From: Candidatus Omnitrophota bacterium
GTDB lineage: Bacteria > Omnitrophota > Omnitrophia > Omnitrophales > Aquincolibacteriaceae
Assembly: GCA_022709525.1 (NCBI GenBank)
Contig: JAKLIQ010000001.1
Coordinates: 78,709 to 142,708, forward strand
Reading direction: 5' to 3'
Length of the DNA: 64,000 bases
Of the stretch, positions 43,086 to 64,000 are shown piece after piece. The position numbers were made by a program, and so were the translations under genes. Under the pieces are notes generated by a model. It was given only the letters and a program-made list of their open reading frames with translations, made no database searches and was not told the origin of the DNA. Numbering within the stretch: position 1 is the first letter of the stretch; the number at the start of each line of letters is the position of its first letter.

Positions 43086-43196
43086 ACGTTAGAGGCCTAA
43101 GAAGCGCTATCCTTGTCTCTCACTTCTTTTTCTTGAGGGCGACAAGGATTGCCCCATCCCGCCGCTACAAAGGCGGGATGAAAGGAATTGGGACTA

Positions 43197-44246: not shown

Positions 44247-44302
44247 TGGAACTTTTAGCCATTCCCGGTTGTCTTAGTAACCGGAAAAAGGAGGGTACTC
44301 AA

Positions 44303-44839: not shown

Positions 44840-44862
44840 CCTCCAATCCTGTATTAAGTGGA

Positions 44863-44901
44863 GCCGGATCTCCTCTTGGCGGGGAGATCCGGCCTTTTTT
44901 T
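44863..44901 (+). terminator. Rho-independent terminator
   Basis: gccggatctcc-tcttggcgg-ggagatccggc followed by ctttttttt. Confidence 0.65.
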
Positions 44902-45060
44902 AGAGGCCCTAACACCCGCTTCTCATCAAGCCCGTTTTTTGCTATCATACCCGCCCTGAGCCCATTGGGTTCAGGGCAGTCCCGCATCCGACGTGGCGCG
45001 GGGCGCCCGTGTCTTTTTCCAAACCATAATATTACTTAAAAACGTTGGAGATCTAACGAG

Positions 45061-45840: not shown

Positions 45841-46496
45841 TGAACTTTCATTCCAAGAAGCACCATGGTTCTGATAAAAAATCTCAGGATCCGTCCTCGG
45901 AAAAACAGGAAACCGCGCCTTCTCCGGCTCCAGGCAAGGACGGCAAGATCGAGATATCAGTTCACGAATATGAGGAGCTCAAAAAGAAGGTCCAGGAAAT
46001 CGAGGGGTTGCGGGAAAAATTCCTGCGCGCGGCCGCGGATTTCGAGAACGCCAAGAAACGGAACGCCAAAGAAAAAGAGGATTTCATTAAATTCAGCCAG
46101 GAAAGGATCCTGCGCGAGATCCTGCCGGTGCTGGATAATTTTGAGCGGGCGGTGAGCCACGCGACCGCGGCTTCGGCGAACGCTTCGGCCTATGAGGACC
46201 TGCGGAAAAATCTGACCACCGTGATCGCGGGCGTCGAGCGAGTGGAAAAACAGCTGGTCGATATCCTTAAAATGCACGGCCTGAAACGGATCGAAACTTC
46301 GGGCCAAATCTTCAACCCTCATTTCCATGAGGCCGTTGCGCACGTAGCCGAAGAGGGCAAAGAGGACCAGATCGTCGACGAGCTGGAGCCCGGCTACATG
46401 CTTCACGACCGTCTTCTCCGTCCGGCCAAAGTCCGGGTCCGGACATCTCCCAAACGGACGTCCGCTCCCGAAGAAAAACAGGACGAGATCACCTAA
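45837..46496 (+). CDS. grpE: Nucleotide exchange factor GrpE
   Basis: GrpE core [21 protein letters not shown]...[11 protein letters not shown]. Its ATG overlaps the hrcA stop. Confidence 0.85.
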
Positions 46497-46503
46497 TTAA
46501 ATC

Positions 46504-46575
46504 GGGACTCGGGGTTCGCCCCTCGGGACTCGAACAAAATGTGACGAGCCCCAAGTCTCGAGGAACGAGCCTCGG
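46504..46575 (+). repeat. Copy E of the GGGACTCG...CGAG(T/C)CCC element (short form)
   Basis: gggactcggggttcgcccctcgggactcg...gacgagccccaagtctcgaggaacgagcctcgg. It starts 8 nt after the grpE stop. Confidence 0.6.
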
Positions 46576-46585
46576 TTTTATTAAT

Positions 46586-47680
46586 ATGAAAAAACGCGAT
46601 TATTATGAAGTGCTTGGGGTCAGCCGGAACGCCGATGCCGAGTCGATCAAAAAAAGTTACCGCAAGCTTGCGCTCCAATACCACCCTGACCGGAACCCGG
46701 GCGACAAGGCCTCTGAAGAAAAATTCAAAGAGGCCGCCGAGGCCTATGCCATTTTAAGCGACCCCGACAAACGGACCCGCTACGACCAGTTCGGGCACAG
46801 CATGGGCGGCGCCGGATTTTCCGGCTTTGAAGGGTTTCAGGACGCTTTTGGCGGGTTCAGCGATATCTTTGGCGACCTCTTCGAGGATTTCTTTGGCGGC
46901 GGGTCCGGGCGCCGCCGCGGCCGCGGGCAACGCGGTTCGGACCTTGAATACAGCGTCGAGATGACGCTCGCGGAAGTTTTGACCGGGAAGACTTTTAACC
47001 TTGAGATCCCGCGCAAAGAGACTTGCGGAGAGTGCCAGGGAACGGGCGCCGAAAAAGGAACGAAGAAAAAAATCTGTCCCGATTGCGGCGGCCGGGGCGA
47101 AGTGCGCGTTTCGCAAGGTTTTTTTACGCTTCGCAGGACCTGCCCGCGGTGCCGCGGCGAAGGAGAATCGATCGAAAAGCCGTGCCAGGCCTGCCGCGGC
47201 GAAGGACGCGTCAAAAAGACGCGCAAACTCGAAGTGAAGATCCCCGCGGGGATCGAGCACGGTTCGCGGCTGCGCGTGACCGGCGAAGGCGAGGCCGGCC
47301 AGGGCGGCGCCTCGCGCGGCGATCTTTATATTCATGTGCTCGTCAAAAAACACAAGACCTTCGAACGCCGGGGCCAGGATGTTTATTGCGAGGTTTTGAT
47401 CCCTTACACGGTTGCGGTCTTGGGGGGCGAAGTGGAAGTGCCGACGATCACAGGAACGGCGCGCCTTGAGATCCCCGCCGGCACCCCGGCCGGGAAGGTC
47501 GTCAAGATCAAAGGCGAAGGCGTGGCAGTTTTCGGGATGCCTGAGCGGCGCGGCGATGAATACGTCAAAGTCGATATCGAGATCCCGGCAAAGCTCAGCA
47601 AGATCGAACGCGAATTGCTCGAAAAACTCGCGGCCGAACGCAAAGAAAAGATCCACGCAAAAAAAGGATTCTTTCAATAG
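46586..47680 (+). CDS. dnaJ: Chaperone DnaJ
   Basis: J-domain (DYYEVLGV...HPDRN); G/F region; four CxxCxGxG repeats. Confidence 0.95.
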
Positions 47681-47688
47681 GAGTGATC

Positions 47689-48120
47689 ATGGACTATTTT
47701 GATTACCGTTACAGGGTGCTTTACGCTGATACCGACCAGATGGGGATCACCTACTACGCGAATTATTTCAAGTGGTTCGAGGCCGCCCGCACCGAATATT
47801 TCCGGGCGCTGGGTTTTCCCTATACCGAATGCGAAAAAAAAGGCATCTATCTTCCCGTCGCGGAGGCGCACGCCAATTATGTTGCGCCCTCGACCTATGA
47901 CGACGATATCATTGTTCGCACCAGCGTGGCGGAGATCGGTAACAGCACGCTGCGGTTCGAATACCAGGTCATGAAAGCCAAGACCCAGATCATGGTCGCG
48001 ACGGGCTATACGGTGCATGTGTTCGTGAACAAAGCCATGAAACCGTGCCGCGTGCCGGAGGAGATCAAGCGGGTCGTTAAAGAGCACACGCTTCTCAAAA
48101 AACGCTGCCGCTGCAAATGA
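47689..48120 (+). CDS. Acyl-CoA thioesterase, YbgC/4HBT hotdog family
   Basis: YADTDQMGITYYANYFKWFEAARTEYF matches the 4HBT motif. AGGAG lies 6 nt before ATG 47689. Confidence 0.7.
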   Translation: MDYFDYRYRVLYADTDQMGITYYANYFKWFEAARTEYFRALGFPYTECEKKGIYLPVAEAHANYVAPSTYDDDIIVRTSVAEIGNSTLRFEYQVMKAKTQIMVATGYTVHVFVNKAMKPCRVPEEIKRVVKEHTLLKKRCRCK

Positions 48121-48135
48121 CGCGGCAGAGCCGCG

Positions 48136-48200
48136 CGGGACTCGTATCTCGGGACTCGTCACTCGTGACGGTCTAAACGAGTCCCTGGTCCCGAGTCCCG
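48136..48200 (+). repeat. Copy F of the GGGACTCG...CGAGTCCC element (short form)
   Basis: gggactcgtatctcgggactcgtcactcgtgacggtctaaacgagtccctggtcccgagtcccg. It lies about 16 nt after the thioesterase stop. Confidence 0.65.
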
Positions 48201-48247
48201 AATTTGGTATACTGTGCATCCAGCAGGCCTTTAAAAAGAAGGATCCG

Positions 48248-49297
48248 ATGGTTAAAAAAATAAGAGTAACGGTCTTAGGCGACGGAGGATGGGGCACGGC
48301 GCTCGCGCTTGTTAACGTCCGCCGCGGCAATGACGTCATGCTTTGGTCCGCTTTTGAGGATTATGCAAAAATCCTGGATAAAGAACGCGAGAATGTCAAA
48401 TTCCTTCCCGGCGTCAAGCTGCCCCGGGAGCTGGCGATTACTTCCAATTTAAAAGAGGCCGTTGATTTCGGCGAGATCCTGGTGCTTGCGATCCCGTCCC
48501 AGTACCTCCGCAATATCCTTTTCAAACTCCGCGAACTTGATTATAAGGGCAAGATTCTGGTCAGCACCGCCAAGGGGATCGAGAAAAAGACCTGCCTCCG
48601 CTCTTCCGAGATCATCCGTTCGGTTCTTGGCAAGAACGCGCCCGTGGTCGCCTTATCGGGGCCGTCGCATGCCGAGGAAGTGGCCCGGAAGATCCCGACC
48701 CTGACGGTGGTCGCTTCCGATGACATGAAAAACGCTCAATATGTTCAGGAGCATTTCCGCGACCCGCAATTCAGGATCTATGTTCAAAAAGATATTATCG
48801 GGGCGGAGTTCGGCGGCGCGCTCAAGAACGTGATCGCGATCGCGGCCGGCGTTTGCGACGGGCTGAAATTCGGCGACAATACCAAGTCCGGGCTTATCAC
48901 GCGCGGGCTTTATGAAATGGTGCGCCTCGGCGTCAAACACGGCGCTAATCCGAACACCTTCTTTGGGCTCTCCGGGATCGGAGATCTCATCACCACCTGC
49001 TTTTCCAAACACGGCCGCAACCTTTATGTCGGCCGGGAGCTCGGCAAGGGCCGGAAGATCAAGGAGATCCTTGCGGGGATGGCGATGGTGGCGGAGGGCG
49101 TGGATACTTCCTTAAGCGTCCATCAGCTTTGCGAGCGCGAAGACCTCCATCTTCCTATCATGCACGAGGTTTACCGGATGCTTTTTGAGGATAAAGATCC
49201 CGAGGAAGTGGTCTCGACGCTTCTTTCGCGGACACCCTACGAAGAATGGAAGGCGTTTGACCTGAGTTCTTTTAAGGCGAGATCTACAAAGAAATAA
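48248..49297 (+). CDS. gpsA: NAD(P)H-dependent glycerol-3-phosphate dehydrogenase
   Basis: VLGDGGWGTALA dinucleotide-binding motif; conserved GpsA core. Confidence 0.9.
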   Translation: MVKKIRVTVLGDGGWGTALALVNVRRGNDVMLWSAFEDYAKILDKERENVKFLPGVKLPRELAITSNLKEAVDFGEILVLAIPSQYLRNILFKLRELDYKGKILVSTAKGIEKKTCLRSSEIIRSVLGKNAPVVALSGPSHAEEVARKIPTLTVVASDDMKNAQYVQEHFRDPQFRIYVQKDIIGAEFGGALKNVIAIAAGVCDGLKFGDNTKSGLITRGLYEMVRLGVKHGANPNTFFGLSGIGDLITTCFSKHGRNLYVGRELGKGRKIKEILAGMAMVAEGVDTSLSVHQLCEREDLHLPIMHEVYRMLFEDKDPEEVVSTLLSRTPYEEWKAFDLSSFKARSTKK

Positions 49298-49310
49298 AAC
49301 GTTCTTATTC

Positions 49311-49357
49311 AAATAAAAAAGGGACAGGCATGAAGTAATTGCCTGTCCCTTTTTTTG
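49311..49357. terminator. Bidirectional rho-independent terminator between convergent gpsA and the FadL-like gene
   Basis: aaaaaaaaa-gggacaggc-atgaagtaatt-gcctgtccc-ttttttt. Confidence 0.7.
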
Positions 49358-49377
49358 CCACCTGCTAGATGCTGTTT

Positions 49378-50793
49378 TTATGCCGCCGGTTTGATATCGA
49401 TCGAAGGCGCCGCCGGAGCATCCTCGGCTTTGGTGCCATAAGCCCGCGGGAAGATGTCGTCCCATTTCATCGTCAGCGTGAACGCGAATTGCTGCAGGTA
49501 GGAATGATACGTTCCGTCCACCGACGAATTAAGGAGCGCCGCGTTTTCCGCGATGTCATTATTGACGCGCCTTCTGAAATAGAATGCGTTCGAATACATA
49601 ACATCCGCGGTAAGGTATTTGTTGATGGCATAGCCAAGCCCAAGGCTGAAAGAAACGCGGTTTGAATCCGGCACGGACGGCGTGAAGTGAGTTTTCGGGA
49701 CGGGCGTCCAGTAATAATACGACCCGCCGCGGAGCGTTAATTTATCCGTAAGTTTGTGACTAACGCCCAACTGGATCCCGTACGCATTCTGCCAGTCTTT
49801 ATTGGCCATGCGAATGTTGTTTAGAATAATATCATCCGCGGCGTTTCCTGAAGGATCATTGACAAAATAAAGACGCTTGAACGTGGACCAGCGCGACCAT
49901 GTAAAATCGATCTCATAATGGGTTTTTTTGGTCGGCTGAAATGCGTAGGCCCATGTCATGTTCATAGGGAGCGGGAGCTTGGTGTGAACGCCGGTTTCGA
50001 AGTTTCGAAGACCAAGACCTCCTAAAGCAACGGGGATATTGGAATTCTCTACTTTAACTCGCCCCTTAAGATCCATCACCACGGGGCTACGGAAATAATA
50101 ACCAAAACGATGCTTTTCTTTTAATTTTATGAGAGCGCCTAATTGCCAACCCCAGTGGTTACCGGAGGTATTGATCCGGACCTGTCCGTCCGGCGAAGTC
50201 ACTCCAAAAAGCGAAGTATATAAGTTGTTAGGGTAGCCCTGGATCCCGCCGAAATCGTAGACCCGGTACCACATCGGGCCGCCGCCGACATTCAGCCAAT
50301 CCGTGACCTTGTAGGCAACGGTGGGCTTGATCGTGAACATCTTGAGGTAATTGCGCCAACCGGTGTAATGGGCGGCGGGGTCATTGGAATTATATTTATT
50401 CATCAACCCGAACGGGGAATCGGTGCCGACGCCGAGCGTCAACCGGTCGCAGAAGATCTTGCCGGGGTTGATCGTGAAATAAGCGGTCGGGACCATACTG
50501 AGCGTGCCCGAACTGCGGGTATCGCCGGTGACGCTATTGTCTTTCCAGGTGAACAGACTAATGAAACTGGAGTTGCCCTGGAATTGAATGCCCGGAAGGT
50601 CCGCGATGCCGGCCGGGTTATAAGAGATCGCCGCCGGCTCATCCGGCGTGGCGGTTCCCGCGCCGCTTAAAGCCAATTGTTTTGCGCTGAACGAGGCATT
50701 TTCAAGCCCGCCCCCGCCCACCGCGTAAGCTGCCATAGGGGAGATGAAAACAAGAGCGATCATGATCCCTGCCGAGAAAGCTTTTTTCATCAT
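49378..50793 (-). CDS. Outer membrane transport protein, OmpP1/FadL/TodX family
   Basis: Signal peptide and the N-terminal hatch-region motif ISYNPAGIADLPG. About 450 aa of beta-barrel-like sequence. Confidence 0.6.
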   Translation of the reverse strand: MMKKAFSAGIMIALVFISPMAAYAVGGGGLENASFSAKQLALSGAGTATPDEPAAISYNPAGIADLPGIQFQGNSSFISLFTWKDNSVTGDTRSSGTLSMVPTAYFTINPGKIFCDRLTLGVGTDSPFGLMNKYNSNDPAAHYTGWRNYLKMFTIKPTVAYKVTDWLNVGGGPMWYRVYDFGGIQGYPNNLYTSLFGVTSPDGQVRINTSGNHWGWQLGALIKLKEKHRFGYYFRSPVVMDLKGRVKVENSNIPVALGGLGLRNFETGVHTKLPLPMNMTWAYAFQPTKKTHYEIDFTWSRWSTFKRLYFVNDPSGNAADDIILNNIRMANKDWQNAYGIQLGVSHKLTDKLTLRGGSYYYWTPVPKTHFTPSVPDSNRVSFSLGLGYAINKYLTADVMYSNAFYFRRRVNNDIAENAALLNSSVDGTYHSYLQQFAFTLTMKWDDIFPRAYGTKAEDAPAAPSIDIKPAA

Positions 50794-51423: not shown

Positions 51424-51672
51424 ATGGAAAACGCCGCAGAAAAAGAAAAAGCTTTACCGGTCGATCAAGTTCCCGACAACGTATGGTTCCAGATCACATT
51501 CACGCTCGACCCTAAGAGTTATCGGCGTCTTTGGGCCTATGCCGAAAGCGTCAATTCAGGGGTTTCGAGTGTTGTCCGTGAAAAGATCTTGGAATTTCTA
51601 AAAGAGTTGAAACCCTTGCCGTCGGTCCGAAGATTTCATTTCGGATTAAATGATGAGGAAAGCCGCTCGTGA
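51424..51672 (+). CDS. Small ribbon-helix-helix (CopG/Arc-like) DNA-binding protein candidate, translationally coupled to the giant gene
   Basis: GGAGG lies 5 nt before ATG 51424. The predicted beta-strand VWFQITFTLD is followed by two helices, which is the RHH pattern. Its TGA stop overlaps the GTG start of the next gene (gtga). Confidence 0.4.
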   Translation: MENAAEKEKALPVDQVPDNVWFQITFTLDPKSYRRLWAYAESVNSGVSSVVREKILEFLKELKPLPSVRRFHFGLNDEESRS

Positions 51673-54600
51673 AAAGCGCTTTTTCGTATCCGGTCAGAAT
51701 CGTTGCGATCCTGACCGCTATTCTTTTTGCCTGGAATCAGATCGTTTGGGCGGATGGCATCCAGTCGGTGCAGCCGTATGATCCTGAAACTTCGCAACCG
51801 ACAACCTCGGCGATCTCTCAGGATCCTCCCGTCGCGCCGGAAACTCTTTCCCTTCCGGAAACCACTCAAGATTTTCTCACCAGCGATTTTCCGCTAAGCC
51901 CCGCGACCCCCGAATCTCCGGACGGACAAGGCGGCGGGGAACCCTTACAGACGGAGACTACGGCGGACGGGCACACCCTCTTTCATGTCTATGAAAATGA
52001 ATCGATCCAGGAGGCCATCAACGGAGCATCCGTAGGAGATACCGTATTTCTTCACGCGGGCATTTACAATCAATCCGTCACCTTAAGACAAGGAGTAAAT
52101 CTTAAAGGAGAAGATAGCGCCACCGTCATTCTTGACGGGCAGGGAATGTTCAGGGATGTGATCCTGGCGCAGGGGGATAATCTGATCGAAGGCATTACGG
52201 TCAAGGGTGGAGCGCCTTATGCCGGGCCAAAATCCGCGATCAGAATTGAAGGCAACAATGTTATTCTCCGGAACAGCCGGGTGGTCGATAACGCGGATTA
52301 CGGGGTCTACCTGCGCTCCGGAAATAATATCCTTATCGAAAGGGTGTTCTTTCAGAACAACCATCTTGCCATCCAGCATCCAAGCGCTGCGGCAACGAAT
52401 GTTGTGATCCGCTATAACACCATGGTGAATAACAGCATCGGGATCAATATTTTAAGCGGTGTTACTCCCAGGATCGAAAACAATATCATCACCGGAAGCA
52501 GTTTTTGCGCGATCTACGAATTCAACTGGAACGCTTACGCGACCGGCCAGTTAAGCCGCGGGTTTGCCGTTCTTGAGAACAACGTCTTTTCCGGCAACGC
52601 GTGGCGGCCGACCGCCTACGGAAGCTCGACGCCCCCGGTCGTTGAAAATTCAGCCGCCGGCAATATCACGGCGGACCCTCAATTCAATAGCGACTATTCC
52701 ATCCCCGAAACTTCGCCTGCTTACGGTAAAGGGGCGTTCTTGCCAGCAGCTTTTTTGTGGGCTGTTAACAGGGCAGATCAGTTTAATGTTTCTTACAGCA
52801 TCCAAACGATTTTCGAAAACGGCACCGCAAAAGGTTTTCGGATTCTTTACACCGAAGGATCTCATGAAGAATTCTATAACAACGGAGCCATGGTGCTTGA
52901 TATAACTCCGCCTCAAATCAGTTTTTCTTCGACAAGCATTTTTACCAATCAAGTCGATTATGAGTTCGTCTATATCGTGGACAACATTGAGAAAAAAGAA
53001 TTCTACCATCTCAATCCCGGTCAAAATCCGATTACCTTGGAAGCTGTAGATATTTTTGGGAACAAAGCGAGCCAAACCGTCATAGTAATGCTCGATCAAG
53101 TTGCCCCCACAGGGACACTCACTATCAATGATGGCGACCAAGAAACAAATTCCAGATTCGTCGTTCTTTCTTTTGATATTCAAGATGATTCGCCTTTGAA
53201 AGATGTTCGTTTTTCGTTGGATGGAGGAAACAGCTGGATGGATTGGGAAGAATTTGCAGCGTCAAAAGTAATAACATTCTCTGAAGATGAAGGGGAGAAA
53301 GAAATCCTTTGTCAATTGCGTGATGCGGCGGGGAATAGCGCTTCGTTTTCCGATGTGATCCGTTTTACGATGTCACCCTCCAAGCCGGCTATCCAGTTTC
53401 TTTCACCTTCAACAGCGACTAACCCTCTCTATTTGCTTCGCTATACCGTCAATGGAGTTGAGCGCCAGGAAACCTGGCAGCTTCAGCCGGGCGAAAACCA
53501 TTTGATGGTTTGTTCATCTTTTGGAACCTTGCCGGCATTTGGCGATCATGTTGTTGTTTTGGACCAAGAAGAAACTCCTTTGCCTGAAATGCCAGTATTT
53601 TCAGGATTGCCTTCGGCGCTTACTTCCGTCACCGCTTCGAATGGCCTTATTTTCAAATATGATCCCAGCACGTTGGTTGCGATTGAAAAGACCGGCGAAT
53701 ACACACTCTTCAATTTAATATTTGATGCACAGAATAACCTTACGGGAGGTGTGCTTCTTTTTGAAAATGGGGACCAGTTACTTTTCCAAAATAATAAACC
53801 AATTTATCGTTTAGCGCAGAGTGGTGAAAGAACGGTTTATAACGAAGACGGGTCTGTGGCCTATGTTTTGACCGTAGATAATAAAAAAATACGATTCGCC
53901 TATCATGTCGACATTTCCGGCAAGGTCATTGGCATAGCCAGCTTCGAAGAAACCGCTACAAGTCTTTACGATGAAAAAGGCCGACCGGTTTGGATTAAAA
54001 AAAGCGGCGGGATTTCCATTCTCTTTCAAGACGGATTTTTAAACACTTATACCGATGCTGCCGGCAATGTTTTTCATTATGAAGTTTCTATTCTTCGCGA
54101 AGGGAACGATCTGATCGGGTATCGTTCAGAACTTGTTTCGGTCGCTTTATCGGGGACATCGGTTGAGATGCCCATCGCGACCGTTCTTAACGATCTCGAA
54201 TCTTATCCTTCGATCAAGCCAACTATCGAAGAAGAAATTTCCAAAACCATCGAATATGACGCTGCCGGGAATATGAAAACTGTTATTTCCGGAAAAGGAG
54301 AAATTCTCCGGCTTGCCGCCCAATTGCCTGAAGCATTGACCAACAACGCGGGAGAAATTTTCCAATTTCAAAGCTCTATTTTGCAAGATAACGAATGGTT
54401 TTCGATGGCTTCGGACCAGGGAAGCTTGGAGCAGATTTTTGATGCCCAGGGTCAATTGGCTGGTATTCGTTTGAGCGATGGAACAGTTTTTGATATTTCA
54501 GCGCTCAGTTTGAACGAAATCAGATTGGAGGACGGCAGTATTTTAAGCCAGCTTGTTTGGAATGGGCAGAACTTAACGGGTTTCAGGCGCCAAAATACCG

Positions 54601-57600
54601 ATGGCTCCGCAGACATTTATCAAAATTCTTATCTCATGGAACATGTTGATCCTGAAGGGAATCGTACTCTCTATATTCTTTACAAAGAGCCCGGCAAGCC
54701 TACCCAACACAAACCTTCCGAAATCCATATGGCGGATGGAAGAACCTACAAGGTTATTGAATTTAAAAATGCAAGCGGCGCCTTAGAACGGATCAATGAA
54801 TTAACTTCGATAACGCTTCCTGACGGAGGAAAGGTTGAATTTGAGAACGGCGTTCCAGTCCGATATATCCAATATCAAGAAGTCCGTCTCGATGCTGAAA
54901 CATTGCCGGAACTTCCGAACGGTCAATCCTATATCCCGTCTTTGACTTTTCCCGAATTGGAACTTCGCGGTATCACGATCGACGCGACAGGCAATATTCT
55001 TTCCGGAGAGATTTTATACCGGGACGGTACCCAGCATTTAATAAAAAATGGAGTGCTTTATAAACAGATCACGCCTGGCGGCCAGATCGTGGAATTCAAT
55101 GAAAATTTTGAAAATACGTGGGATCCTCCGCAAGCTACTTTGCCCCAACCTCTTACTCAGGAAGAATTGGCTTACCGTAATGCTCTTATTGAAGCACAAC
55201 TTGATTACTTCAAAGAAGGCGTCGGCCTTCATCAGCTAACGGGGCTTCCGCTGGACAATTATCAAACCGGCGCCGCAGAACCCGCGGATTACAGCCAGGC
55301 AACTCTCGTCGGATTTTGGGCCGAGATCCTGGTTGCTATTGCAACGGGAGATTATGTCACTTCCAAAATGACGCAAGAAGAGGCCCTCTCAAAGCTTGAA
55401 AATCTTCTAGCGGCTTATCGTCAGGCGCAATTGGAAGCCGGTTGGAACGGAATGCTGGCCTTTTTTACGATCGTTGAAAGCCAGGAAGAAATTCTAGACA
55501 GCCAGGGGTTGCCTACGGGCGAAATGCGAACAGTTATTCATTATGAGAATAGATTTAATCAGTATGGCTTCGGGGACACGCTGAATCTTTCCGTAAGCCT
55601 GGCCTCTGTGATAGGAGCGCTTGAAGGGCGTTCCTTGGGCGCCTCGCTGGATATTTTTAAAAATAATATATTGGAGACAGCAAACAATATTTTAACGGAT
55701 CAAGAAGCCGGGTATGCCGCGTTCTACGATCCATCTAAAAAAAGATTCCATGGGTCTTACGCGAAGGACCCCGCTACCGGGACGTGGAAATTCGTCAAAG
55801 ATTTTTATATCGACCGTGTTTTCAGCGAATTCCGGACAGGGCTTATCTGGCTGGCCGCGAAGTACCCTCAATATCAAGAAGCCGTTAACGCGATTGATGT
55901 GGCTTTTCGTTCTTATCAGAGCGAAAGCGGCGAGGTTGTCGATAATGTTGCGCCGTGGGACGGCGGAGCTTTTCAGATGTTCTGGCCGCAAATCCATGTT
56001 GATGAGACCCAGTATCCCGAGTTCGCCGTAGCTCTCCGAAATTTTCTTTATACCCAAGCCGAATTTGTGAATCAAAACGATATCGCAGGATTACTTTCGG
56101 CTGGCGCGGATCCCGGGCAAGGATATGAAGGAAAGATCGGGGTCCCTTATGCCGCGGAGACCGATGATCCGCTTCATACCGATATCGGTTCGCTTTACGG
56201 TCTTGCTTCGGCATTCTCCGTGGCGCCGCATTACGTTCTGCAATTTTTTAAAAATATCGAAGCCGCTATTCCCGGCGTTCTTACCGGAGCGGGTTTTGCC
56301 GATTCCGTGAAATTTCTTACCGAAACCTCGACGGATCCTGTGAGCGGGGAAGAGCTCATCACGCGAACGCCGGTGCTGGCAACCGAATATTTTGGCGTCG
56401 ATCAAGCTTCCTTTGTGCTTTCGTTGCTTCAAACAAGCCGGAGTTATTTTTCAAATTACCTGAATCAAACCAACACCAAAAATTCTTTCGATAACCTTTA
56501 TCGGTCCTTTCAATTCAATTTAACACCGGTGGAAAAAAACTTGCCGCCGCCTCCCGATTTCGGGTTGACACAGGAAAATCTTTATACCGGAAGCGAGACG
56601 AATCCTGACGGCAATGGATATCCTTTGGTGAAAGAAGATGCCTTTATTTCTTCCCTTTTTGATCCGGAGTACGGGGAAGGACATATCTATAATTATCGAA
56701 CGCCCAGCGGTGCTTTCCATCATACCGGGATAGAATTCCTTTCTTCTGCCGGTGAAACGGTCTCCATGGGACTTCAAGAATTTCTTTTGCTTCCGGGTCG
56801 CCGGGATGCCGCCCGCTCTCTCTTTGAATCGCTTAACTTTGATCTTTTTGATCAGGCGAAAGCTCAGGGGGCTTTTTATACTCCCGGCTACGGTTTTGCC
56901 AACGGCGCTTTGGCCTATGTTCCTCCCATGGGAGAAGTTCAAACCGTTCAATTTGATTTTCGTGATGTCACCAGACCGGTAGGTTTGTGGGCCCAATTCC
57001 AGGGGATCGATCTCAACAATTTTGACTTTATCTCAGTTCCTATCAAGCTTGATTTAAATACCGATGTGGCCATGCGGCTCAAATTTGAATTGAAAGGAAT
57101 GGGCGAGGTTTTTATAACGCCGGAACTTACTCATGAATGGCAATATATTCAAGTGCCCATCAAAAAACCCTCCTCATTACTTACCGAGATCGCAGTGGTG
57201 GCTCAATCCATGGATGGCAGTCCCATCAAAGGGGAATTTCTTTTGGGGCCGCTTTCTACTTTTAAGATCCGGACAAACAATACCATTGACTGGCAATCAC
57301 TGATCGGAAAAACAAACGCTCAGCTTCAAAATCTTTTAAAAAGCGCCGCGTTAGAACAACCTAGTAGCGGCGGCATTGTCACCAAGGAAGAGATCCTCGA
57401 AGATTTCGTGATCGATTCCCAGGGGAAGCTTGTGAGCGGGATCTTGAGAAAAGCTAATGGCGAAATTCAGTATTATCAAAGCGGGCAACTGATGAAATGG
57501 GTTTTCCCGAGCGGAAGAACAGTGCTTTTTGAAAACGGGCTTGCGACCTTTGTTGTCGATCTGGCTCGCGGCCAGTTGGAAGAATCGCGATTCTATTATG

Positions 57601-60600
57601 ATCAAGACCTTCGCGGCCAGCTTCATTCGTTTGTGATTCAGGAGAATGACCGGAAAAGGGTTTTTAACGCTCAGGGAGAACTTGAGCTGCTTGTCGAAGA
57701 AGGATTTCTCGCACATTTTGAACAAGGCGAAATTTTATCCATTGAAACCCCCACGGCCACTTTAACCAACATTGTTCTTGCTGACGATCTCAGGATCTTA
57801 ACGGCACACGTCAAAATGAAAAATGGGTCGGAATTCGATATCGATCAAACGCAGGAACAGGCGGTCAGCTTTAGTGATGGCGTTAAACTTTTTTATTCAA
57901 ACCGGGAAGTCACGGCGATCGAAACACCGTCAAACGGCAGGACCGAACTTCAGTATGATTACGACGCGTTAGGCCGGTTAATGGGCGTCAATGTCTCGTT
58001 TCAAGAGGTTGGAAGCAGCGCTGTTGTCGAAATGAGCTTAAGTGATTTTTTGAATTTACCAAGCCGGGAGGTAGAAAAAACGTATTTACTGAAAGAAGGC
58101 GCTCTGGATCTGGACTCCGTTTCCTCCATTTTAGGATATAGCGTGGGGGGAACGGTCAATCATCTCTGGTTGGACGCGCGTAAAGAAGGCGGCAGTTTTT
58201 ACAATGGTTGGGCGTGCACAGAGCCGGCTTGTTGGAATTTCGGATACAACGCGAATACGCCTACGATCGGCATGGCGTTCAATTATGCCGCGCCTGTGAA
58301 TCTTTCCGACTATGATTTTCTTTCCGTAACGATCCGTTTGGATCCCGGCGTGACATGGCCGCAGGATTTCGTTCTTTCCGTCAAAGATGGTTACTGGGCA
58401 AGGTTTTCTTACGCCATTCAGGGGCTGACCGAGGAATATCAAACTTTTACTATTCCTTTGGCCGGGAAGACATGGGCCATGAACCAGCTGACATTGGAGA
58501 TCCAAGGCGGGGATCACGATCCCCTGGCTTATGGATCGATGGGCAAAGTATTTCTGGAAGATGTTTCCTTTTTTTCCATTCATGACGGGGAAAACCCCAT
58601 TTGGGAAGCCCAGGCGGGGATCACCGATGCTCAGATCCAAAACCTGAAGATCGAATCGGATAATTTGAATAGCGTCGGTGCTCACATAGCTTCTCAAACC
58701 CCTCTTCAATATGAAGCCCTTCGCGCATTTCTGGACCTTCCGACTTATATGATCTACCAGCAAGAAACGTCGGGGAGCGATTTCCAGCTCGAGCATTTCA
58801 GGCGTTTTGACGGAAGCCAGATCGATCTGGAAGGCCAAAACGTTAGCCGCGTCATTTTGCCCGATGGCACGATCAACGAATATTCAGCTACTGGGAATAC
58901 GGCGGAGGGAACCATTCTAGATCCCGGAAATGGTGTGAGTGATATCGGGAATATAAACTACAGCTATGGAGCTCTCCGGCGGATCACGCAAGCGGACGGG
59001 CGGCAATATGAGCTTTCTTATGAATTTGATCCAGGCGGTGCGGAAATAACGGTATTCCGCGACATACTTACGGGAGAAGTGAGGCGATTCAAAGGCGGAA
59101 AACTTATTTCTGCAACCGATCCCAATCAGATCCAGACTCATTATCTTTATGAAAATGGCGAATTGATCGGGGCGGAACTGACCTATCACAATCGCGTTCT
59201 CAATAGCACGCAATATTTCTTCAACGGGGAAGAAACTCAGGTCACGGATGAGCGGGGGACCACATGGTTCTATGATAAAGACGGTAAATTGCTCAAACAT
59301 ATGACGCGGGACGGTTTTCTCTATGAGTATTCGGAATTCACGCAGCCTCTTTCGGAAGGGCAGACAGTCGATCCAGATGATTATAAGAATGCCGTTTACG
59401 CAGGGAACGGTCTTACAGCCGTTACTCTTAAAGGTTATCAAGCTCCGAATGGTTCTTGGATCTTATGGGATGAGGAACACGGTTCCGAGATCCACTTGGC
59501 ATCAGGGGCGCAAGGAGTGAATCTTGTCTTTGACGGAGAGCAGAAAATTCAGAGCGGGCAGATCCAATTTCCGGACGGCATGCTTCTTGAGATCGAAAAT
59601 TATATCCCTGTTCGAGGCCGTCTTGCGAGCGGGGAAACTTTTGAATATACACTTCCACAAGCTACGGACCACGAAATACTTCAAGGTCCGGATGGCAGCT
59701 ATCTTGGATTTTGTTTCAAGATCGGCACGACTCGTTTTACTTACAGCCCGCTCGGAGAATTGGTTAAGACAGAGTCTGAGGACGGCGTCACTCATCTTTT
59801 CACCTATACGCGCAATCGTTGGGGAGACATCATAAATTACACAAATCTTGAACGCCGCCAGATCGCTTTCAACGGAGTCCCTTTTCCCAAAGAAGTAAAG
59901 CTCATTGCCGGAACGGATCAAAAACTCATGGATTCCGGAAATGAAATAGCGGTTCATAACGGGAATGGATTCATTGTTGGAATATACAAAGAAAGCGCGA
60001 ACCAGTGGGATGTTTATTCCGGAAGTTTTGCGTCTGAAGCGGACCGGATCGGTCTCAGACATTTTCTTTCAGAGATCAAGACCGGCGATTTCGTGGCCAT
60101 GACGGTTTCAGATTCCGCTTTTTCGCAAGTCGATGAAGAGATCTTTTCGCTTTTGGAAGGGATGGGGGCCGGAGCGGTTCGTCAGGCGGCCGCCAGTAAC
60201 AGTTCATGGAGTTTTTTTGGAAATGAAAATCTGAATTTAGGGGAGGGACGTGAAGCCGTTGGCGTAAATTCCTTCTCGACCCTGACAGAAACAAGTAGAT
60301 TTGAAAGCTTGATCAGGAATCAAAATCTTTTTTTTCAAAATGCCCCGATGTCTTTAAACATAGCCCCGGAGATTTCGGCGGGCTTTTCTCAGTTTTTGAA
60401 AGATTATCTTCCCCTAAAAGCGGCCCGAGACCTTCAGGCGGTAACCGTTTACAACAAACAGGATGAGATTGTGTTCTCAAGGCGGCTTGATGGGATCAAT
60501 TCCTATTATGAATTCGGGAAAGTAAGGGAAACATTCGACGGGAATGGCGAGCTTTTAAGCGTTCATGAATACGTTTGCCCCGAAACCGGCTGCCATAGCG

Positions 60601-63600
60601 CAGAAGATATGGCGCTTAAAAAGATCACGCTTGTGAAGAGCCGTCAGGATTTTGAAGCCCAGGCGATAGAACTTTCCGAACAGATAGAACAAGCGAAATT
60701 CGAAGCGCTTTACCGCCTGGCTTGGCAGGATGAGGTGGCGCGCGCCCAGATCAAAGAAAATGTAGATGCCGGCGTCGCCCAGATCAATGCACAGATATCC
60801 AGTTTGGAGTCCCAGCGTTTTAAAAAAGTTAAAGAATGTCGCAGCTTTCTTTTTTGGAAACATTGCGAAGAAAGGACCTACGAGGTCCCGGGTGTCCAAT
60901 CCGCCATCAATCAATTAGCGGGCCAGCGCGCCGAGCTTGTTCGGACCGGTGAAGAGCAGCTCGCGGCGATTCCTGGCGCGATGGCGGCGAAACAGATCGA
61001 GATCGAACAGGCGACAGCTCAAAAGATGGCCGAACTGGTCGCGCAAAAAGAAGCTTTTCTTTTGGATATCCTGCGCGAAGAAATGGAACCGATCATTACG
61101 GATTTTTATCGCCGCATCCTCGGCCGGGATGCCAGTGAAGAAGAATTCAATTCCTGGGTTGACCGGTATAAGGAGGCCGGGGCGCTTGATATTCAAATTC
61201 TTCAAACGGAATTGCAAACCTCCGAAGAAAAGATCCTTCGTGAAGCCCAAAAAACAGCCATCATCGAAAATATCAGGACCCTTTTAAATACTTATGTGGC
61301 CGGAACTCCGGAAGAAAAGTCAGCGATCCTGCAAACTTTACATCTCGAGGCTTCCGAGGCCGTGGATCTTAACGCGGAAGATGTGAACAAGATCCTCGAA
61401 TGGCTCGAAAGCCGCGATCTCCATTTCGGGCAATCCGCATTCTTATCCCTTAAGGAAATGCTCGCTTCTAAAGGCGTGGATGTCCCTGTGGAGACGATTG
61501 GAAAAGAAGCGATCCTGATCGACATCTTGGCCGGCGTGATCACGCGCTTCACGGAAGGCGATATTCTGATCTCAACATTTGCTCTCAACAGGACCGCGGC
61601 TATTCATGGCCAGGAATTTACCACGGTCAAATATTCCTATCAGGATCTTCTCGCGCTTTATCAAAGCGTATGCCCGGATCTTGCGAGCGCTTGCCCCTTG
61701 CGCGTGATCGCCCATATCGATGAAGACCATTTTGTGGTCATCAAGAAAGTGACAGATACCGAGGTTATCTATGAAGAGACCAATAAAGGGGCGAATGGCT
61801 CGGATGTCACGATCTCAAGAGAAAATTTTCTCAGGGTTTGGACCGCGGAAAATGATGCGGGACATTTAATTGTCTCGCAGGAACAGGCGCTTGAAACACA
61901 GAGGCTTTCCGATCAGGAAGCCATGAGGATAAGAGGCTCTTTCTTCGGGATCGACGATCTTATTTTTTGGGCTTTTGTGGCGAGCATGGTCTTTACGGTA
62001 GCGTCGGTCGCCGTTTCTTTCTTCAGTCCCGCGCTCGGGAAGATCCTCGGCTATGCGGCGCTTGTGGCCGGCATTGTGGGGATCGTGGCGAGCATCGGTC
62101 AGTTCGTCGTGCAGGGTCTTAAGATGGTTTTTTCCAGCATCTCAAGTCAGGGCTTTTTTTCTACCATCAAACAAGGCCTGGCTTATGTGGGAAAAGTTCT
62201 CTGGGCGCCCGTTAAGGCCGTAGGCCAGTTCATCCAGAACGGTTTTCAATTTCTAACAAGTGGTTTTTCAGCCGGGTTCGGGAGTTTTGGTTCCGGGATC
62301 GCCCAAATAAAAGATTTTCTTCTAGTCGGGGCGAACGAAATTTATAAAGACGGTGTTTTGATCGGCCGCGAATTTACATTTTCCCAGATCGCGGCCCGTC
62401 AATTAGTGGCGGCGGGACTTAATATGGGTGTTTCAAGCGGTCTGGAAGGTTTAGGGCTTGATCCTCAGCTTTGCCAGCTCGCGGGCGCTTTTGTGGGCGG
62501 GGGTTTTCTTGGGATCGGGCAGGCGGGTTCAAGTTTCATACGGTCGGGACTGCAGAATTTTGCCTTACAAGGCGTTTCCCAGCTTGGGCTTCGGCTCGGC
62601 CTCGCGCCGCCGATCGCAAGCGCCCTCTCACTTGTTGCCTCCACGAGCCTTACCGCTTTATTTGACGGCAGTTTTAACCTTAAAACTTTTTCTGATATCG
62701 CTCCCACCCTCGCATCCCAGCTCACCATGGGCGGCATGGAACTCATCGGCCGCTCCTTAGGCCTCGATCCCCGCATTACACAGCTTTTAGGACTCCCCAT
62801 ATCCTCAATCGTAGGAAATATTACAGCCCGATTTTCGGGAACTGTTATCGGGTATCGGGATGATGGTACGCCGATTTATGTGACAAGCCAATATGATACC
62901 GGTTCCCTCTGGGATTCCATAAAAAATTCCTTGGTTAATGGCATCCAACAAATCGGATTTGTTTTTGGGGGAGAATCTACGAATTCGATCTTTGGTTCTT
63001 TGCTGAGCAGCAGCATTTTAAATTCTGTCGGAAGTATTTTGGGCAGCGAAGGACTTTTCAATGGCATTTTGGATATTCTTAAAACGACGGTTCTTGCGCC
63101 CTTGAATCTTATAAACGGTATTGTCCAGACAACGATCCAAGGGCTTCGGAATTTCAATGATCTGATCCAGGAAAAAGGATTAATCGGAGCCTTTGAATCG
63201 TTAGCCACTTCCATTTTTAGCCGGAGTGCCCTCGAAAAGCTTCTTGGTTTTGGAGGGATTTCGGGGTTTTTAGGTTCTGCGGCTAAAAACTTGACCACGC
63301 TCGCAAATGGCCAGCAGGTGCAGGAACAGAAAGTCGACGGCTCCACATCTCTTTATTATGATCTGTTTGGAAATTTTATTGGCAAGAAAGAGAACGGAGT
63401 TACGCAGATCGGCACCTTTGGCATTAACTCTGTGGGCAAGTGGGCGCTTCTGGCAGGAACTTTTATTAGTAATGTAGTAGCTGATTGGGCATTTGCCGGA
63501 GAAGTAAATAATGGCCAACTCAAAAGCGGAAAGCTTTATCAAAACGGAACACTCGTAGGTGAATTTACACCTGAAAATAATGATGGAAGCATTATCATCA

Positions 63601-64000
63601 ATGGCAGTCACCCAGATGCTCAGCGGTTCAGTTCCTCAGGCGGATTCTGGGGCATGGTTTTTAAATTCATACCTTATGCCATGGAGTTTGTGTTCAACGG
63701 CGGCCTTCTTCAGGGGGTTAATTTTACTTCTGGTTCTTCCCAAAATACGGATTCCAATAAGCCATTTTTTGTTTTAGCGAATGGTGTTGGAAATCCTTCG
63801 GCTACAGGTTCGCCCGATTACATTAATAATTTAACATCCGATCTTCAAACAAGCAGCAATGGCCAGATTGCTTATGATGACATTATAAAACCACCGCTTT
63901 ATAATGCATTGCTCAATGGCGGGACAACCGACCAGGTAAAAGATATCCTGCATTGGATCGCAGAATCAAATACCCCCTATATCCGTTTGGACCTTGTCGG
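51669..64000 (+). CDS. Giant secreted multidomain protein, more than 4,100 aa, continuing past the window end. Domains in order: signal peptide; parallel beta-helix repeats; long uncharacterized region; YD-like repeats; C39-like papain-fold domain; TM-helix cluster; Gly/Ser-rich segments.
   Basis: Frame 0 is open from the stop at 51654 to the window end. No complete + ORF in that frame appears in the track, and manual translation found no stop. Signal peptide VKSAFSYPVRIVAILTAILFAWNQIVWA. Other landmarks are NNVILRNSRVVDN...NNILIERVFFQNN (PbH1-like) and YD-like motifs (YDYDALGRL, YSYGALRRIT..YELSYEFD, WFYDKDGKLL...YEYSEF). A C39-like pattern is HFGQSAFLSLKEMLASKG...HFVVIKKV...NFLRVW. Hydrophobic helices lie at about 61960-62115. 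Confidence 0.7.
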   Translation, partial: MKSAFSYPVRIVAILTAILFAWNQIVWADGIQSVQPYDPETSQPTTSAISQDPPVAPETLSLPETTQDFLTSDFPLSPATPESPDGQGGGEPLQTETTADGHTLFHVYENESIQEAINGASVGDTVFLHAGIYNQSVTLRQGVNLKGEDSATVILDGQGMFRDVILAQGDNLIEGITVKGGAPYAGPKSAIRIEGNNVILRNSRVVDNADYGVYLRSGNNILIERVFFQNNHLAIQHPSAAATNVVIRYNTMVNNSIGINILSGVTPRIENNIITGSSFCAIYEFNWNAYATGQLSRGFAVLENNVFSGNAWRPTAYGSSTPPVVENSAAGNITADPQFNSDYSIPETSPAYGKGAFLPAAFLWAVNRADQFNVSYSIQTIFENGTAKGFRILYTEGSHEEFYNNGAMVLDITPPQISFSSTSIFTNQVDYEFVYIVDNIEKKEFYHLNPGQNPITLEAVDIFGNKASQTVIVMLDQVAPTGTLTINDGDQETNSRFVVLSFDIQDDSPLKDVRFSLDGGNSWMDWEEFAASKVITFSEDEGEKEILCQLRDAAGNSASFSDVIRFTMSPSKPAIQFLSPSTATNPLYLLRYTVNGVERQETWQLQPGENHLMVCSSFGTLPAFGDHVVVLDQEETPLPEMPVFSGLPSALTSVTASNGLIFKYDPSTLVAIEKTGEYTLFNLIFDAQNNLTGGVLLFENGDQLLFQNNKPIYRLAQSGERTVYNEDGSVAYVLTVDNKKIRFAYHVDISGKVIGIASFEETATSLYDEKGRPVWIKKSGGISILFQDGFLNTYTDAAGNVFHYEVSILREGNDLIGYRSELVSVALSGTSVEMPIATVLNDLESYPSIKPTIEEEISKTIEYDAAGNMKTVISGKGEILRLAAQLPEALTNNAGEIFQFQSSILQDNEWFSMASDQGSLEQIFDAQGQLAGIRLSDGTVFDISALSLNEIRLEDGSILSQLVWNGQNLTGFRRQNTDGSADIYQNSYLMEHVDPEGNRTLYILYKEPGKPTQHKPSEIHMADGRTYKVIEFKNASGALERINELTSITLPDGGKVEFENGVPVRYIQYQEVRLDAETLPELPNGQSYIPSLTFPELELRGITIDATGNILSGEILYRDGTQHLIKNGVLYKQITPGGQIVEFNENFENTWDPPQATLPQPLTQEELAYRNALIEAQLDYFKEGVGLHQLTGLPLDNYQTGAAEPADYSQATLVGFWAEILVAIATGDYVTSKMTQEEALSKLENLLAAYRQAQLEAGWNGMLAFFTIVESQEEILDSQGLPTGEMRTVIHYENRFNQYGFGDTLNLSVSLASVIGALEGRSLGASLDIFKNNILETANNILTDQEAGYAAFYDPSKKRFHGSYAKDPATGTWKFVKDFYIDRVFSEFRTGLIWLAAKYPQYQEAVNAIDVAFRSYQSESGEVVDNVAPWDGGAFQMFWPQIHVDETQYPEFAVALRNFLYTQAEFVNQNDIAGLLSAGADPGQGYEGKIGVPYAAETDDPLHTDIGSLYGLASAFSVAPHYVLQFFKNIEAAIPGVLTGAGFADSVKFLTETSTDPVSGEELITRTPVLATEYFGVDQASFVLSLLQTSRSYFSNYLNQTNTKNSFDNLYRSFQFNLTPVEKNLPPPPDFGLTQENLYTGSETNPDGNGYPLVKEDAFISSLFDPEYGEGHIYNYRTPSGAFHHTGIEFLSSAGETVSMGLQEFLLLPGRRDAARSLFESLNFDLFDQAKAQGAFYTPGYGFANGALAYVPPMGEVQTVQFDFRDVTRPVGLWAQFQGIDLNNFDFISVPIKLDLNTDVAMRLKFELKGMGEVFITPELTHEWQYIQVPIKKPSSLLTEIAVVAQSMDGSPIKGEFLLGPLSTFKIRTNNTIDWQSLIGKTNAQLQNLLKSAALEQPSSGGIVTKEEILEDFVIDSQGKLVSGILRKANGEIQYYQSGQLMKWVFPSGRTVLFENGLATFVVDLARGQLEESRFYYDQDLRGQLHSFVIQENDRKRVFNAQGELELLVEEGFLAHFEQGEILSIETPTATLTNIVLADDLRILTAHVKMKNGSEFDIDQTQEQAVSFSDGVKLFYSNREVTAIETPSNGRTELQYDYDALGRLMGVNVSFQEVGSSAVVEMSLSDFLNLPSREVEKTYLLKEGALDLDSVSSILGYSVGGTVNHLWLDARKEGGSFYNGWACTEPACWNFGYNANTPTIGMAFNYAAPVNLSDYDFLSVTIRLDPGVTWPQDFVLSVKDGYWARFSYAIQGLTEEYQTFTIPLAGKTWAMNQLTLEIQGGDHDPLAYGSMGKVFLEDVSFFSIHDGENPIWEAQAGITDAQIQNLKIESDNLNSVGAHIASQTPLQYEALRAFLDLPTYMIYQQETSGSDFQLEHFRRFDGSQIDLEGQNVSRVILPDGTINEYSATGNTAEGTILDPGNGVSDIGNINYSYGALRRITQADGRQYELSYEFDPGGAEITVFRDILTGEVRRFKGGKLISATDPNQIQTHYLYENGELIGAELTYHNRVLNSTQYFFNGEETQVTDERGTTWFYDKDGKLLKHMTRDGFLYEYSEFTQPLSEGQTVDPDDYKNAVYAGNGLTAVTLKGYQAPNGSWILWDEEHGSEIHLASGAQGVNLVFDGEQKIQSGQIQFPDGMLLEIENYIPVRGRLASGETFEYTLPQATDHEILQGPDGSYLGFCFKIGTTRFTYSPLGELVKTESEDGVTHLFTYTRNRWGDIINYTNLERRQIAFNGVPFPKEVKLIAGTDQKLMDSGNEIAVHNGNGFIVGIYKESANQWDVYSGSFASEADRIGLRHFLSEIKTGDFVAMTVSDSAFSQVDEEIFSLLEGMGAGAVRQAAASNSSWSFFGNENLNLGEGREAVGVNSFSTLTETSRFESLIRNQNLFFQNAPMSLNIAPEISAGFSQFLKDYLPLKAARDLQAVTVYNKQDEIVFSRRLDGINSYYEFGKVRETFDGNGELLSVHEYVCPETGCHSAEDMALKKITLVKSRQDFEAQAIELSEQIEQAKFEALYRLAWQDEVARAQIKENVDAGVAQINAQISSLESQRFKKVKECRSFLFWKHCEERTYEVPGVQSAINQLAGQRAELVRTGEEQLAAIPGAMAAKQIEIEQATAQKMAELVAQKEAFLLDILREEMEPIITDFYRRILGRDASEEEFNSWVDRYKEAGALDIQILQTELQTSEEKILREAQKTAIIENIRTLLNTYVAGTPEEKSAILQTLHLEASEAVDLNAEDVNKILEWLESRDLHFGQSAFLSLKEMLASKGVDVPVETIGKEAILIDILAGVITRFTEGDILISTFALNRTAAIHGQEFTTVKYSYQDLLALYQSVCPDLASACPLRVIAHIDEDHFVVIKKVTDTEVIYEETNKGANGSDVTISRENFLRVWTAENDAGHLIVSQEQALETQRLSDQEAMRIRGSFFGIDDLIFWAFVASMVFTVASVAVSFFSPALGKILGYAALVAGIVGIVASIGQFVVQGLKMVFSSISSQGFFSTIKQGLAYVGKVLWAPVKAVGQFIQNGFQFLTSGFSAGFGSFGSGIAQIKDFLLVGANEIYKDGVLIGREFTFSQIAARQLVAAGLNMGVSSGLEGLGLDPQLCQLAGAFVGGGFLGIGQAGSSFIRSGLQNFALQGVSQLGLRLGLAPPIASALSLVASTSLTALFDGSFNLKTFSDIAPTLASQLTMGGMELIGRSLGLDPRITQLLGLPISSIVGNITARFSGTVIGYRDDGTPIYVTSQYDTGSLWDSIKNSLVNGIQQIGFVFGGESTNSIFGSLLSSSILNSVGSILGSEGLFNGILDILKTTVLAPLNLINGIVQTTIQGLRNFNDLIQEKGLIGAFESLATSIFSRSALEKLLGFGGISGFLGSAAKNLTTLANGQQVQEQKVDGSTSLYYDLFGNFIGKKENGVTQIGTFGINSVGKWALLAGTFISNVVADWAFAGEVNNGQLKSGKLYQNGTLVGEFTPENNDGSIIINGSHPDAQRFSSSGGFWGMVFKFIPYAMEFVFNGGLLQGVNFTSGSSQNTDSNKPFFVLANGVGNPSATGSPDYINNLTSDLQTSSNGQIAYDDIIKPPLYNALLNGGTTDQVKDILHWIAESNTPYIRLDLV

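Follow-up and report, generated by a model that had tools for sequence, protein, structure and literature searches.

What does a C39-like peptidase domain without the catalytic cysteine of its family do in the middle of a giant exported protein? The stretch analysed here (the window) comprises 64,000 nucleotides of contig JAKLIQ010000001.1 from a Candidatus Omnitrophota bacterium, and its end is occupied by a single open frame of 4,114 codons (frame 3, plus strand) that runs from position 51657 to the window end; the likely start is a GTG at 51669 with GAGGA upstream, and residues are counted from position 51657 throughout. The first-pass annotation, made from the letters alone, had described within this protein a C39-like papain-fold domain with a substituted catalytic Cys, directly followed by hydrophobic helices, and the peptide it quoted is encoded in this frame and at this place. 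By profile comparison and structure modelling, we show that aa 3245-3411 are a C39-family papain-fold peptidase domain, with its fold, its homology and its residue equivalences. The family alignment points to a working triad of Ser3260, His3358 and Glu3374 rather than a decayed domain, and we propose, at roughly even odds (a probability of about 0.5), that this Ser-type peptidase would act outside the cytoplasm and cut its own chain at G3427-S3428/F3429.

Evidence for the C39 fold came from profiles and from a structure model. The Pfam profile Peptidase_C39 (PF03412) scored 24.3 bits on the isolated segment against a cut-off of 22, and 19.2 bits on the whole protein; the match is partial and covers aa 3342-3396 (profile positions 71-122 of 133), which is the His-containing half alone. 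NCBIfam yielded nothing further for the domain, and a phmmer search with the single domain against PDB sequences returned only noise. The family profile, in turn, matched PCAT1 among the PDB sequences, with His3358 and Glu3374 placed on its His102 and Asp118, and an hhalign comparison with PCAT peptidase domains (six genuine ones, taken from plasmid records) gave a probability of 98.4% and an E value of 6e-14 over 149 columns. An AlphaFold2 (AF2) model of aa 3240-3500, computed from a 37-sequence alignment, has a predicted local distance difference test score (pLDDT) above 90 across the domain, and its best Foldseek matches in the PDB are the peptidase domains of PCAT1, LahT150 and ComA. In this model, Ser3260 lies in the first turn of helix 20-32 (model numbering) and His3358 and Glu3374 on adjacent strands, so that a nucleophile position opening the first helix, with His and acid on neighbouring strands, follows the papain-like layout described for LahT (PMC6363468). 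The domain claimed by the first-pass annotation is thereby supported. Pfam also gave a weak hit to DUF7242 (22.1 bits against a cut-off of 27) at window 61266-61505, aa 3204-3283, which overlaps the N-terminal helix and the HFGQSAF motif.

The substitution of the catalytic Cys also proved real. In the hhalign comparison it is Ser3260 that aligns with the PCAT Cys; of the 'Phe/Ser' first assigned to this position, the Ser stands, whereas Phe3257 falls, together with His3256, into a two-residue insertion relative to C39. Residue counts here and below refer to an alignment of 149 relatives and the window protein (150 sequences, median pairwise identity 35%). The position of Ser3260 is occupied by Ser in 142 sequences and by Cys in 5, that of Glu3374 by Asp in 77 and Glu in 69, and that of His3358 by His in 140/150, the exceptions being split or misaligned domains; all relatives with an aligned C-terminal half keep the His and the Asp/Glu, bar one Asn. 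His3358 and Glu3374 are 16 residues apart, the same spacing as in C39. Since Ser or Cys, His and Asp/Glu are kept across the family, we read Ser3260 as a selected nucleophile and not as a product of decay. Among the genome loci, its codon is TCN in 59 cases, in all four forms, and AGT in one (L057:10067), a variation that adds little because these loci were retrieved by the pattern LHFGQSAF, which fixes the Ser. A switch between TCN and AGT requires an intermediate such as Cys (TGT) or Thr.

The alternative that survives best takes the domain for a non-catalytic relative of the C39-like domain (CLD) of HlyB. That CLD, the N-terminal domain of an RTX ATP-binding cassette (ABC) exporter, has Tyr at the Cys position and is not proteolytic. 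Placed next to the membrane anchor, a domain of this type would act as a clamp or chaperone that binds the leader-like helix described below, or some other chain, and leaves it uncut. A C39 fold without catalytic Cys is common to both (PDB 3zua). We nevertheless consider this reading unlikely: even at the low pairwise identity of the family, the Ser, His and acid positions are conserved as strongly as structural glycines, and a domain that only binds need not keep all three; moreover, the sole alternative to Ser is Cys, whereas HlyB carries Tyr there. The degenerate active site and exporter context that mark a CLD were also not found, the triad being conserved and an ABC exporter context absent. 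The first suggestion of an inactive, HlyB-like domain is thus not upheld by the 142 Ser and 5 Cys and the retained His and acid.

Further residues set the family apart from C39. The nearly invariant His3256, four positions before the nucleophile, is replaced by Asn in 4/5 of the Cys variants, and it may possibly serve as an oxyanion-hole residue. A helix inserted relative to C39 carries the nearly invariant Asp3289, and Ser3306 (window 61572-61574) is likewise (nearly) invariant in the family.

If the Ser triad is active, its likeliest substrate would be the chain in which it resides. The segment that links the final strand of the domain to the first hydrophobic helix contains a conserved motif of the double-glycine-leader type, overlooked by the first-pass annotation, which reads L-S-D-Q-E-A-M-R-I-R-G-S in the window protein (aa 3417-3428) and L-S-x-x-E-x-x-x-I-R-G-[A/S] in its conserved family form (residue counts in Table 1). 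Double-glycine leaders end in GG, GA or GS and have Leu at -12, Glu at -8 and Leu at -7; their hydrophobic residues at -4, -7 and -12 dock in a groove of the peptidase, with positions -1 to -3 extended and -4 to -11 forming a two-turn helix (PMC6363468). The AF2 model fits a docked leader, with residues 3419-3424 (-10 to -5) helical and 3426-3427 (-3/-2) extended at a pLDDT of 81-97; for the motif as for the triad, this evidence consists of secondary structure and pLDDT and is indirect support. The pattern [LIVM]x3[EQ]x3[IV]xG[GAS] occurs at this site in 102/142 relatives; elsewhere, 422,686 residues contained it 21 times, which sets the background at 5e-5 per residue, and the window protein has a single occurrence in all. 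The leader-like motif is also present in 60 genome loci. In nearly all relatives the motif keeps a fixed distance from the domain, and it is all but absent from other parts of these proteins, as would be expected of a cis site. Inheritance of the motif from a PCAT linker was rejected, as nothing comparable follows the peptidase domain in the six genuine PCAT sequences.

The site borders directly on the membrane segment. The hydrophobic helices noted in the first pass were borne out by Kyte-Doolittle 19-residue means of 2.29 (aa 3435-3453) and 2.25 (aa 3467-3485), and these two stretches and the N-terminal signal are the only three strongly hydrophobic ones in the whole protein. A loop of about 7 residues separates the helices, which should accordingly form a hairpin. 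Across the relatives, the median start of the hydrophobic run is 1 residue past the conserved Gly of the motif and its median span is 58 residues, or about two helices, and only 9/141 have a transmembrane-like run upstream of the domain. Because the window protein starts with a predicted Sec signal peptide (cut V-W-A / D-G, assigned by hydropathy and by reading of the sequence) and lacks any further membrane segment on the N-terminal side of residue 3435, the C39-like domain should lie outside the cytoplasm, as far as hydropathy and the appearance of the signal peptide can tell. Similar signal-peptide-like N-termini are found in complete relatives. Among these, L008, L013, L019, L021, L032, L033, L042, L054 and L056 have a recurring pattern, K-x-V-A...L..T-F....Q...W-A, that hints at a common export or sorting signal.

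Based on these findings, we propose a hypothetical mechanism. That the domain is catalytically active and cuts in cis, at which bond it does so, how the chain is placed in the membrane and what the release serves are all predictions. In this mechanism, (i) the nucleophile would have changed from Cys to Ser, with Ser3260, His3358 and Glu3374 as the triad; (ii) aa 3417-3428 would turn back on the domain and enter the leader groove as a short helix, bringing G3427-S3428 to the active site; (iii) a cut after S3428 would yield a secreted, adhesin-like N-terminal part of about 3,400 residues with the peptidase still attached; (iv) the other product would start at the membrane hairpin (3435-3487) and carry the Gly-rich region and the C-terminal effector, here of the alpha/beta hydrolase type. 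Several points weigh against this proposal. The Gln proposed for the oxyanion hole of C39, which precedes the nucleophile by six residues, falls on S3252, a position that is not conserved, and is thus without a conserved counterpart; position -7 of the motif is Ala or Thr, its sole deviation, and not the Leu preferred by ComA and LahT; structural constraints alone could explain why the juxtamembrane helix is conserved; and natural papain-fold enzymes with a Ser nucleophile are without demonstrated activity (PMC10318531).

An active Ser-type C39 peptidase could instead work in trans, on other double-glycine proteins, on paralogous giant proteins or on surface proteins of prey, with the adjacent motif as an autoinhibitory pseudo-substrate or a mere linker. 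This version shares every argument for activity with the cis model and accords with genomes that hold several paralogues (L023/L026 and L042/L071, described below), with the C39 domain of StbD, which also cuts target proteins at Gly-Gly (bioRxiv 10.64898/2026.05.07.723447), and with the view of West-Roberts et al., who leave cis and trans both open (bioRxiv 10.1101/2023.11.21.568195). We regard it as improbable, however, since the distance between motif and domain is fixed in nearly all relatives and the motif is almost confined to that place, a pattern that points to a cis site. A rearranged active site with a cysteine of CPDLASACP as its true nucleophile, the variant raised in the first pass, can draw on the two Cys that the domain of the window protein does contain, but is extremely improbable, as both are absent from 118/150 sequences, are always paired and sit in a variable loop, missing in most relatives, between a helix and a strand that are not C39 active-site elements. 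The alignment (both Cys in 32 sequences, neither in 118, never one singly) contradicts a catalytic role of Cys3339 or Cys3346. The pair is probably a disulfide of a subfamily, and its strict co-occurrence, so read, fits an extracytoplasmic location.

Table 1. Features of the giant gene and of the encoded C-terminal module, in window coordinates; counts at motif positions are numbers of sequences.
Feature	Window position	Strand	Basis
Giant gene	51669..63998, open to window end, at least 4,110 codons	+	sole long open frame here
Predicted Sec signal peptide, VKSAFSYPVRIVAILTAILFAWNQIVWA before DG	51669..51752	+	hydrophobic peak 1.72 (Kyte-Doolittle); basic n-region, h-region, V-W-A motif
Conserved helical region, aa 2940-3240, start of the family-wide C-terminal module	60474..61376	+	phmmer coverage
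C39-type papain-fold peptidase domain, aa 3245-3411	61389..61889	+	
His3256, nearly invariant, family-specific, four positions before the nucleophile	61422..61424	+	H in 142/146 non-gap sequences
Ser3260, at the catalytic-Cys position, predicted nucleophile	61434..61436	+	aligned to Cys of 'DCG' in six PCAT C39 domains
Asp3289, nearly invariant, in a helix inserted relative to C39	61521..61523	+	D 146 / E 3 of 149; hhalign gaps
CPDLASAC loop, subfamily-specific Cys pair	61671..61694	+	both Cys in 32, neither in 118 of 150
His3358, equivalent of the catalytic His	61728..61730	+	aligned to PCAT1 His of 'AHFVV'
Glu3374, equivalent of the catalytic Asp	61776..61778	+	aligned to 'DP' Asp of PCAT domains
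Leader-like motif LSDQEAMRIRGS, aa 3417-3428, predicted scissile bond S3428/F3429	61905..61940	+	family pattern
Motif position -12			L 108, I 29 (of 150)
Motif position -11			S 68, T 33 (of 150)
Motif position -8			E 76, Q 35 (of 150)
Motif position -4			I 100, V 40 (of 150)
Motif position -2			G 142 (of 150)
Motif position -1			A 85, S 54 (of 150)
Predicted transmembrane helix 1, aa 3435-3456	61959..62024	+	Kyte-Doolittle 2.29; AF2 helix 193-214
Predicted transmembrane helix 2, aa 3464-3487	62046..62117	+	Kyte-Doolittle 2.25; AF2 helix from model residue 219
Gly/Ala/Ser-rich low-charge region, then beta-rich region, aa 3488-4030	62118..63746	+	phmmer: 97 relatives over most of the length
First 84 residues of alpha/beta-hydrolase-like C-terminal domain	63747..63998	+	aligns with tails of P0002 and others

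For cleavage in cis by the proposed Ser-type peptidase, the closest parallel is StbD-CT, a C39 toxin of a CdiA-like protein (PDB 8ssm/8ssk), which processes itself in cis after Gly-Gly in an adjacent linker (bioRxiv 10.64898/2026.05.07.723447). By analogy, StbD-CT is a direct experimental precedent for a C39 domain of a giant surface toxin that cuts its own chain. The two differ in that StbD has a Cys nucleophile switched on by reducing conditions, in place of the Ser seen here; in that its site is N-terminal to the domain, whereas the motif described here is C-terminal; and in that the StbD peptidase is the toxin itself, at the extreme C-terminus, while the present domain is internal and followed by a membrane hairpin and a separate effector. 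A Ser nucleophile would, we infer, abolish the redox dependence seen with the Cys of StbD. Compared with the exporters of the PCAT/AMS type (LahT, ComA, PCAT1; PF03412), the domain keeps the papain-like fold and a His and acid 16 residues apart, but has Ser in place of Cys, is missing the oxyanion Gln, has the H-F dipeptide inserted and contains the extra helix with its invariant Asp. Moreover, it is not joined to an ABC transporter: it is internal to a giant Sec-exported protein and probably extracytoplasmic, in contrast to the cytoplasmic C39 domain of PCATs, and the recognition sequence would be on the same chain, C-terminal to the domain.

Serine at the Cys position of a papain fold has been described for menin, PF09641, DUF2145, DUF2272 and DUF3750, families whose activity is unproven (PMC10318531). 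The C39-like family resembles them in its fold and in a conserved Ser beside the other two triad residues, and differs in that none of them is related to C39 and none has an identifiable substrate motif. With polymorphic toxin systems, the window protein and its relatives share a secretion signal, a repeat-rich stalk (beta-helix, RHS/YD), an internal peptidase and variable toxin tails (Zhang et al. 2012, PMC3482391). Tox-PL-C39 is listed there as a toxin with C, H and D, but a Ser-type internal C39 domain is not among the releasing peptidases listed, and the transmembrane hairpin with its Gly-rich module has no described counterpart.

In loci whose gene is complete, between about 316 and more than 3,343 aa precede the domain, whereas the stretch from the domain to the stop codon is constant at about 1,000-1,100 aa. 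No ABC domain was found by Pfam in the 687 residues after the C39-like domain or in the C-terminal modules of relatives, and the domain is followed by a two-helix hairpin only. The region of aa 3488-4030 gave no match in Pfam, PADLOC or a profile search of PDB sequences. Within its Gly-rich part, a motif LGLDP[QR]...L.G occurs twice (window about 62451-62492 and 62757-62798, aa ~3599-3612 and ~3701-3714) and is kept in relatives with the consensus LGxSLGLDPRLxxLIGxP; its doubling suggests an internal repeat.

A tail domain of the alpha/beta hydrolase type starts at aa ~4031 and is shared by 71/149 relatives; this assignment rests on homologues, the window holding only the first 84 residues of the domain. 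The AF2 model of the tail of P0002, the closest full-length relative, has a predicted template modelling score (pTM) of 0.83 and the fold of an alpha/beta hydrolase, and Foldseek related it to minimal lipases and esterases, among them TesA (E 2e-5) and LipA (TMt 0.61). The Ser of a GYSGG motif and one His are nearly invariant in relatives. Other relatives end in Ntox10 (1.8e-24), RES (7e-5), PT-TG or C92 amidase domains, so that a constant scaffold is combined with exchangeable toxin-type ends, which follows polymorphic-toxin logic (PMC3482391).

A wider hypothesis, which we put forward as doubtful, is that the C-terminal module of about 1,050 residues might be an undescribed, self-contained processing-and-delivery device of predatory Omnitrophota that frees a bacteriocin-like, membrane-inserting polypeptide with its effector. 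It would consist of the helical region, the Ser-type C39 peptidase, the built-in double-glycine site, the hairpin, the Gly-rich region and an exchangeable effector, and would amount to a bacteriocin leader-processing system fused into one giant chain. A redox-insensitive Ser would allow the C39 domain to fire outside the cytoplasm, and the freed polypeptide might bring lipase, nuclease or NADase warheads into or across the membrane of prey.

C39 peptidase-like domains adjoining membrane anchors have already been noted in giant proteins of Omnitrophota and suggested to cleave them (West-Roberts et al. 2023, bioRxiv 10.1101/2023.11.21.568195; 10.64898/2026.06.07.730766), and in these two reports we found no mention of a Ser substitution, of catalytic residues, of a cleavage motif or of toxin C-termini. 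A literature search that combined Omnitrophota with polymorphic toxins gave no paper of relevance. Both the class of domain and the notion that it cleaves these proteins are therefore known; new here are the predicted use of Ser as nucleophile, a candidate double-glycine site in cis where the membrane segment begins, and the polymorphic character of the tails. If the proposal is true, the family represents a natural, family-wide switch from Cys to Ser within the well-studied cysteine peptidase family C39, and a substrate sequence on the same chain would make the family well suited to studies of whether, and in what way, serine can drive a papain fold, since it offers defined candidate catalytic residues for mutation and about 230 cluster representatives for comparison. 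Whether and where giant proteins of Omnitrophota are cut is a question raised by the papers that describe them, for which we offer a specific candidate bond, RG[A/S]/F. The variable toxin tails would tie these proteins to polymorphic-toxin logic and hence to the predatory or epibiotic lifestyle proposed for Omnitrophota.

The family was collected by an exhaustive HMMER protein search, which returned 230 cluster representatives at E <= 1e-3 (164 at the stricter limit of E <= 1e-10); in a word-indexed protein search, the single sequence recovered just one partial relative and a profile two. Nearly all relatives have 2,000-7,000 residues, with the C39-like domain about 1,000 residues from the C-terminus. 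In seven of them (P0027, P0061, P0064, P0084, P0047, P0058 and P0081), a foreign insert splits the domain into two halves; the N-terminal half matches, the sequence that follows is unrelated, and a leader-like motif appears only a long way downstream, as does LTHFESQRVTGS in P0027. When species-representative genomes were scanned with an 11-sequence close alignment as query, 72 loci were obtained, almost all from Candidatus Omnitrophota and some from 'uncultured Planctomycetia' bins, and the best locus, L002, is 70% identical. The sole close relative in the word-indexed database, L001 (DAOPZN010000480.1, also P0001), is labelled Opitutales (Verrucomicrobiota). Its 2-kb contig is probably mis-binned, because all 72 relatives in the genome collection are Omnitrophota or 'uncultured Planctomycetia' bins. 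Two contigs each carry a paralogous pair with the same C-terminal module (L023 and L026 on ASOC01000009.1, L042 and L071 on CAZSGP010000001.1), from which it follows that single genomes encode several such proteins.

Towards the N-terminus, Pfam and NCBIfam assigned a beta-helix/NosD region (aa 117-317), RHS/YD repeats near aa 2085-2110 and an ILEI domain (aa 2784-2856). Phmmer coverage rises from about 17 to 91-141 of 143 relatives from aa ~2940 on. A second island, aa 2380-2560 (window about 58794-59336), is shared by about 100/143 relatives and is separated from the C-terminal module by the variable stretch aa 2580-2900 that contains the ILEI domain. The neighbouring genes in the window are mostly housekeeping, without a functional link to the giant gene and without a dedicated exporter adjoining it. 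Positions 43133-50793 hold genes for an ECF sigma factor, a Metal_resist/LTXXQ protein, hrcA-grpE-dnaJ and gpsA, and, on the minus strand, a FadL/TodX outer-membrane protein; murB is also among the neighbours. Together with an autotransporter gene, the murB, ECF sigma factor, hrcA-grpE-dnaJ, gpsA and FadL-type genes indicate a diderm chromosome. That autotransporter, a protein of 1,554 aa encoded at window 37998-42662 on the plus strand with a C-terminal beta-domain (PF03797, 1.5e-49), adds another large surface protein to the window; its gene precedes the giant gene by about 9 kb.

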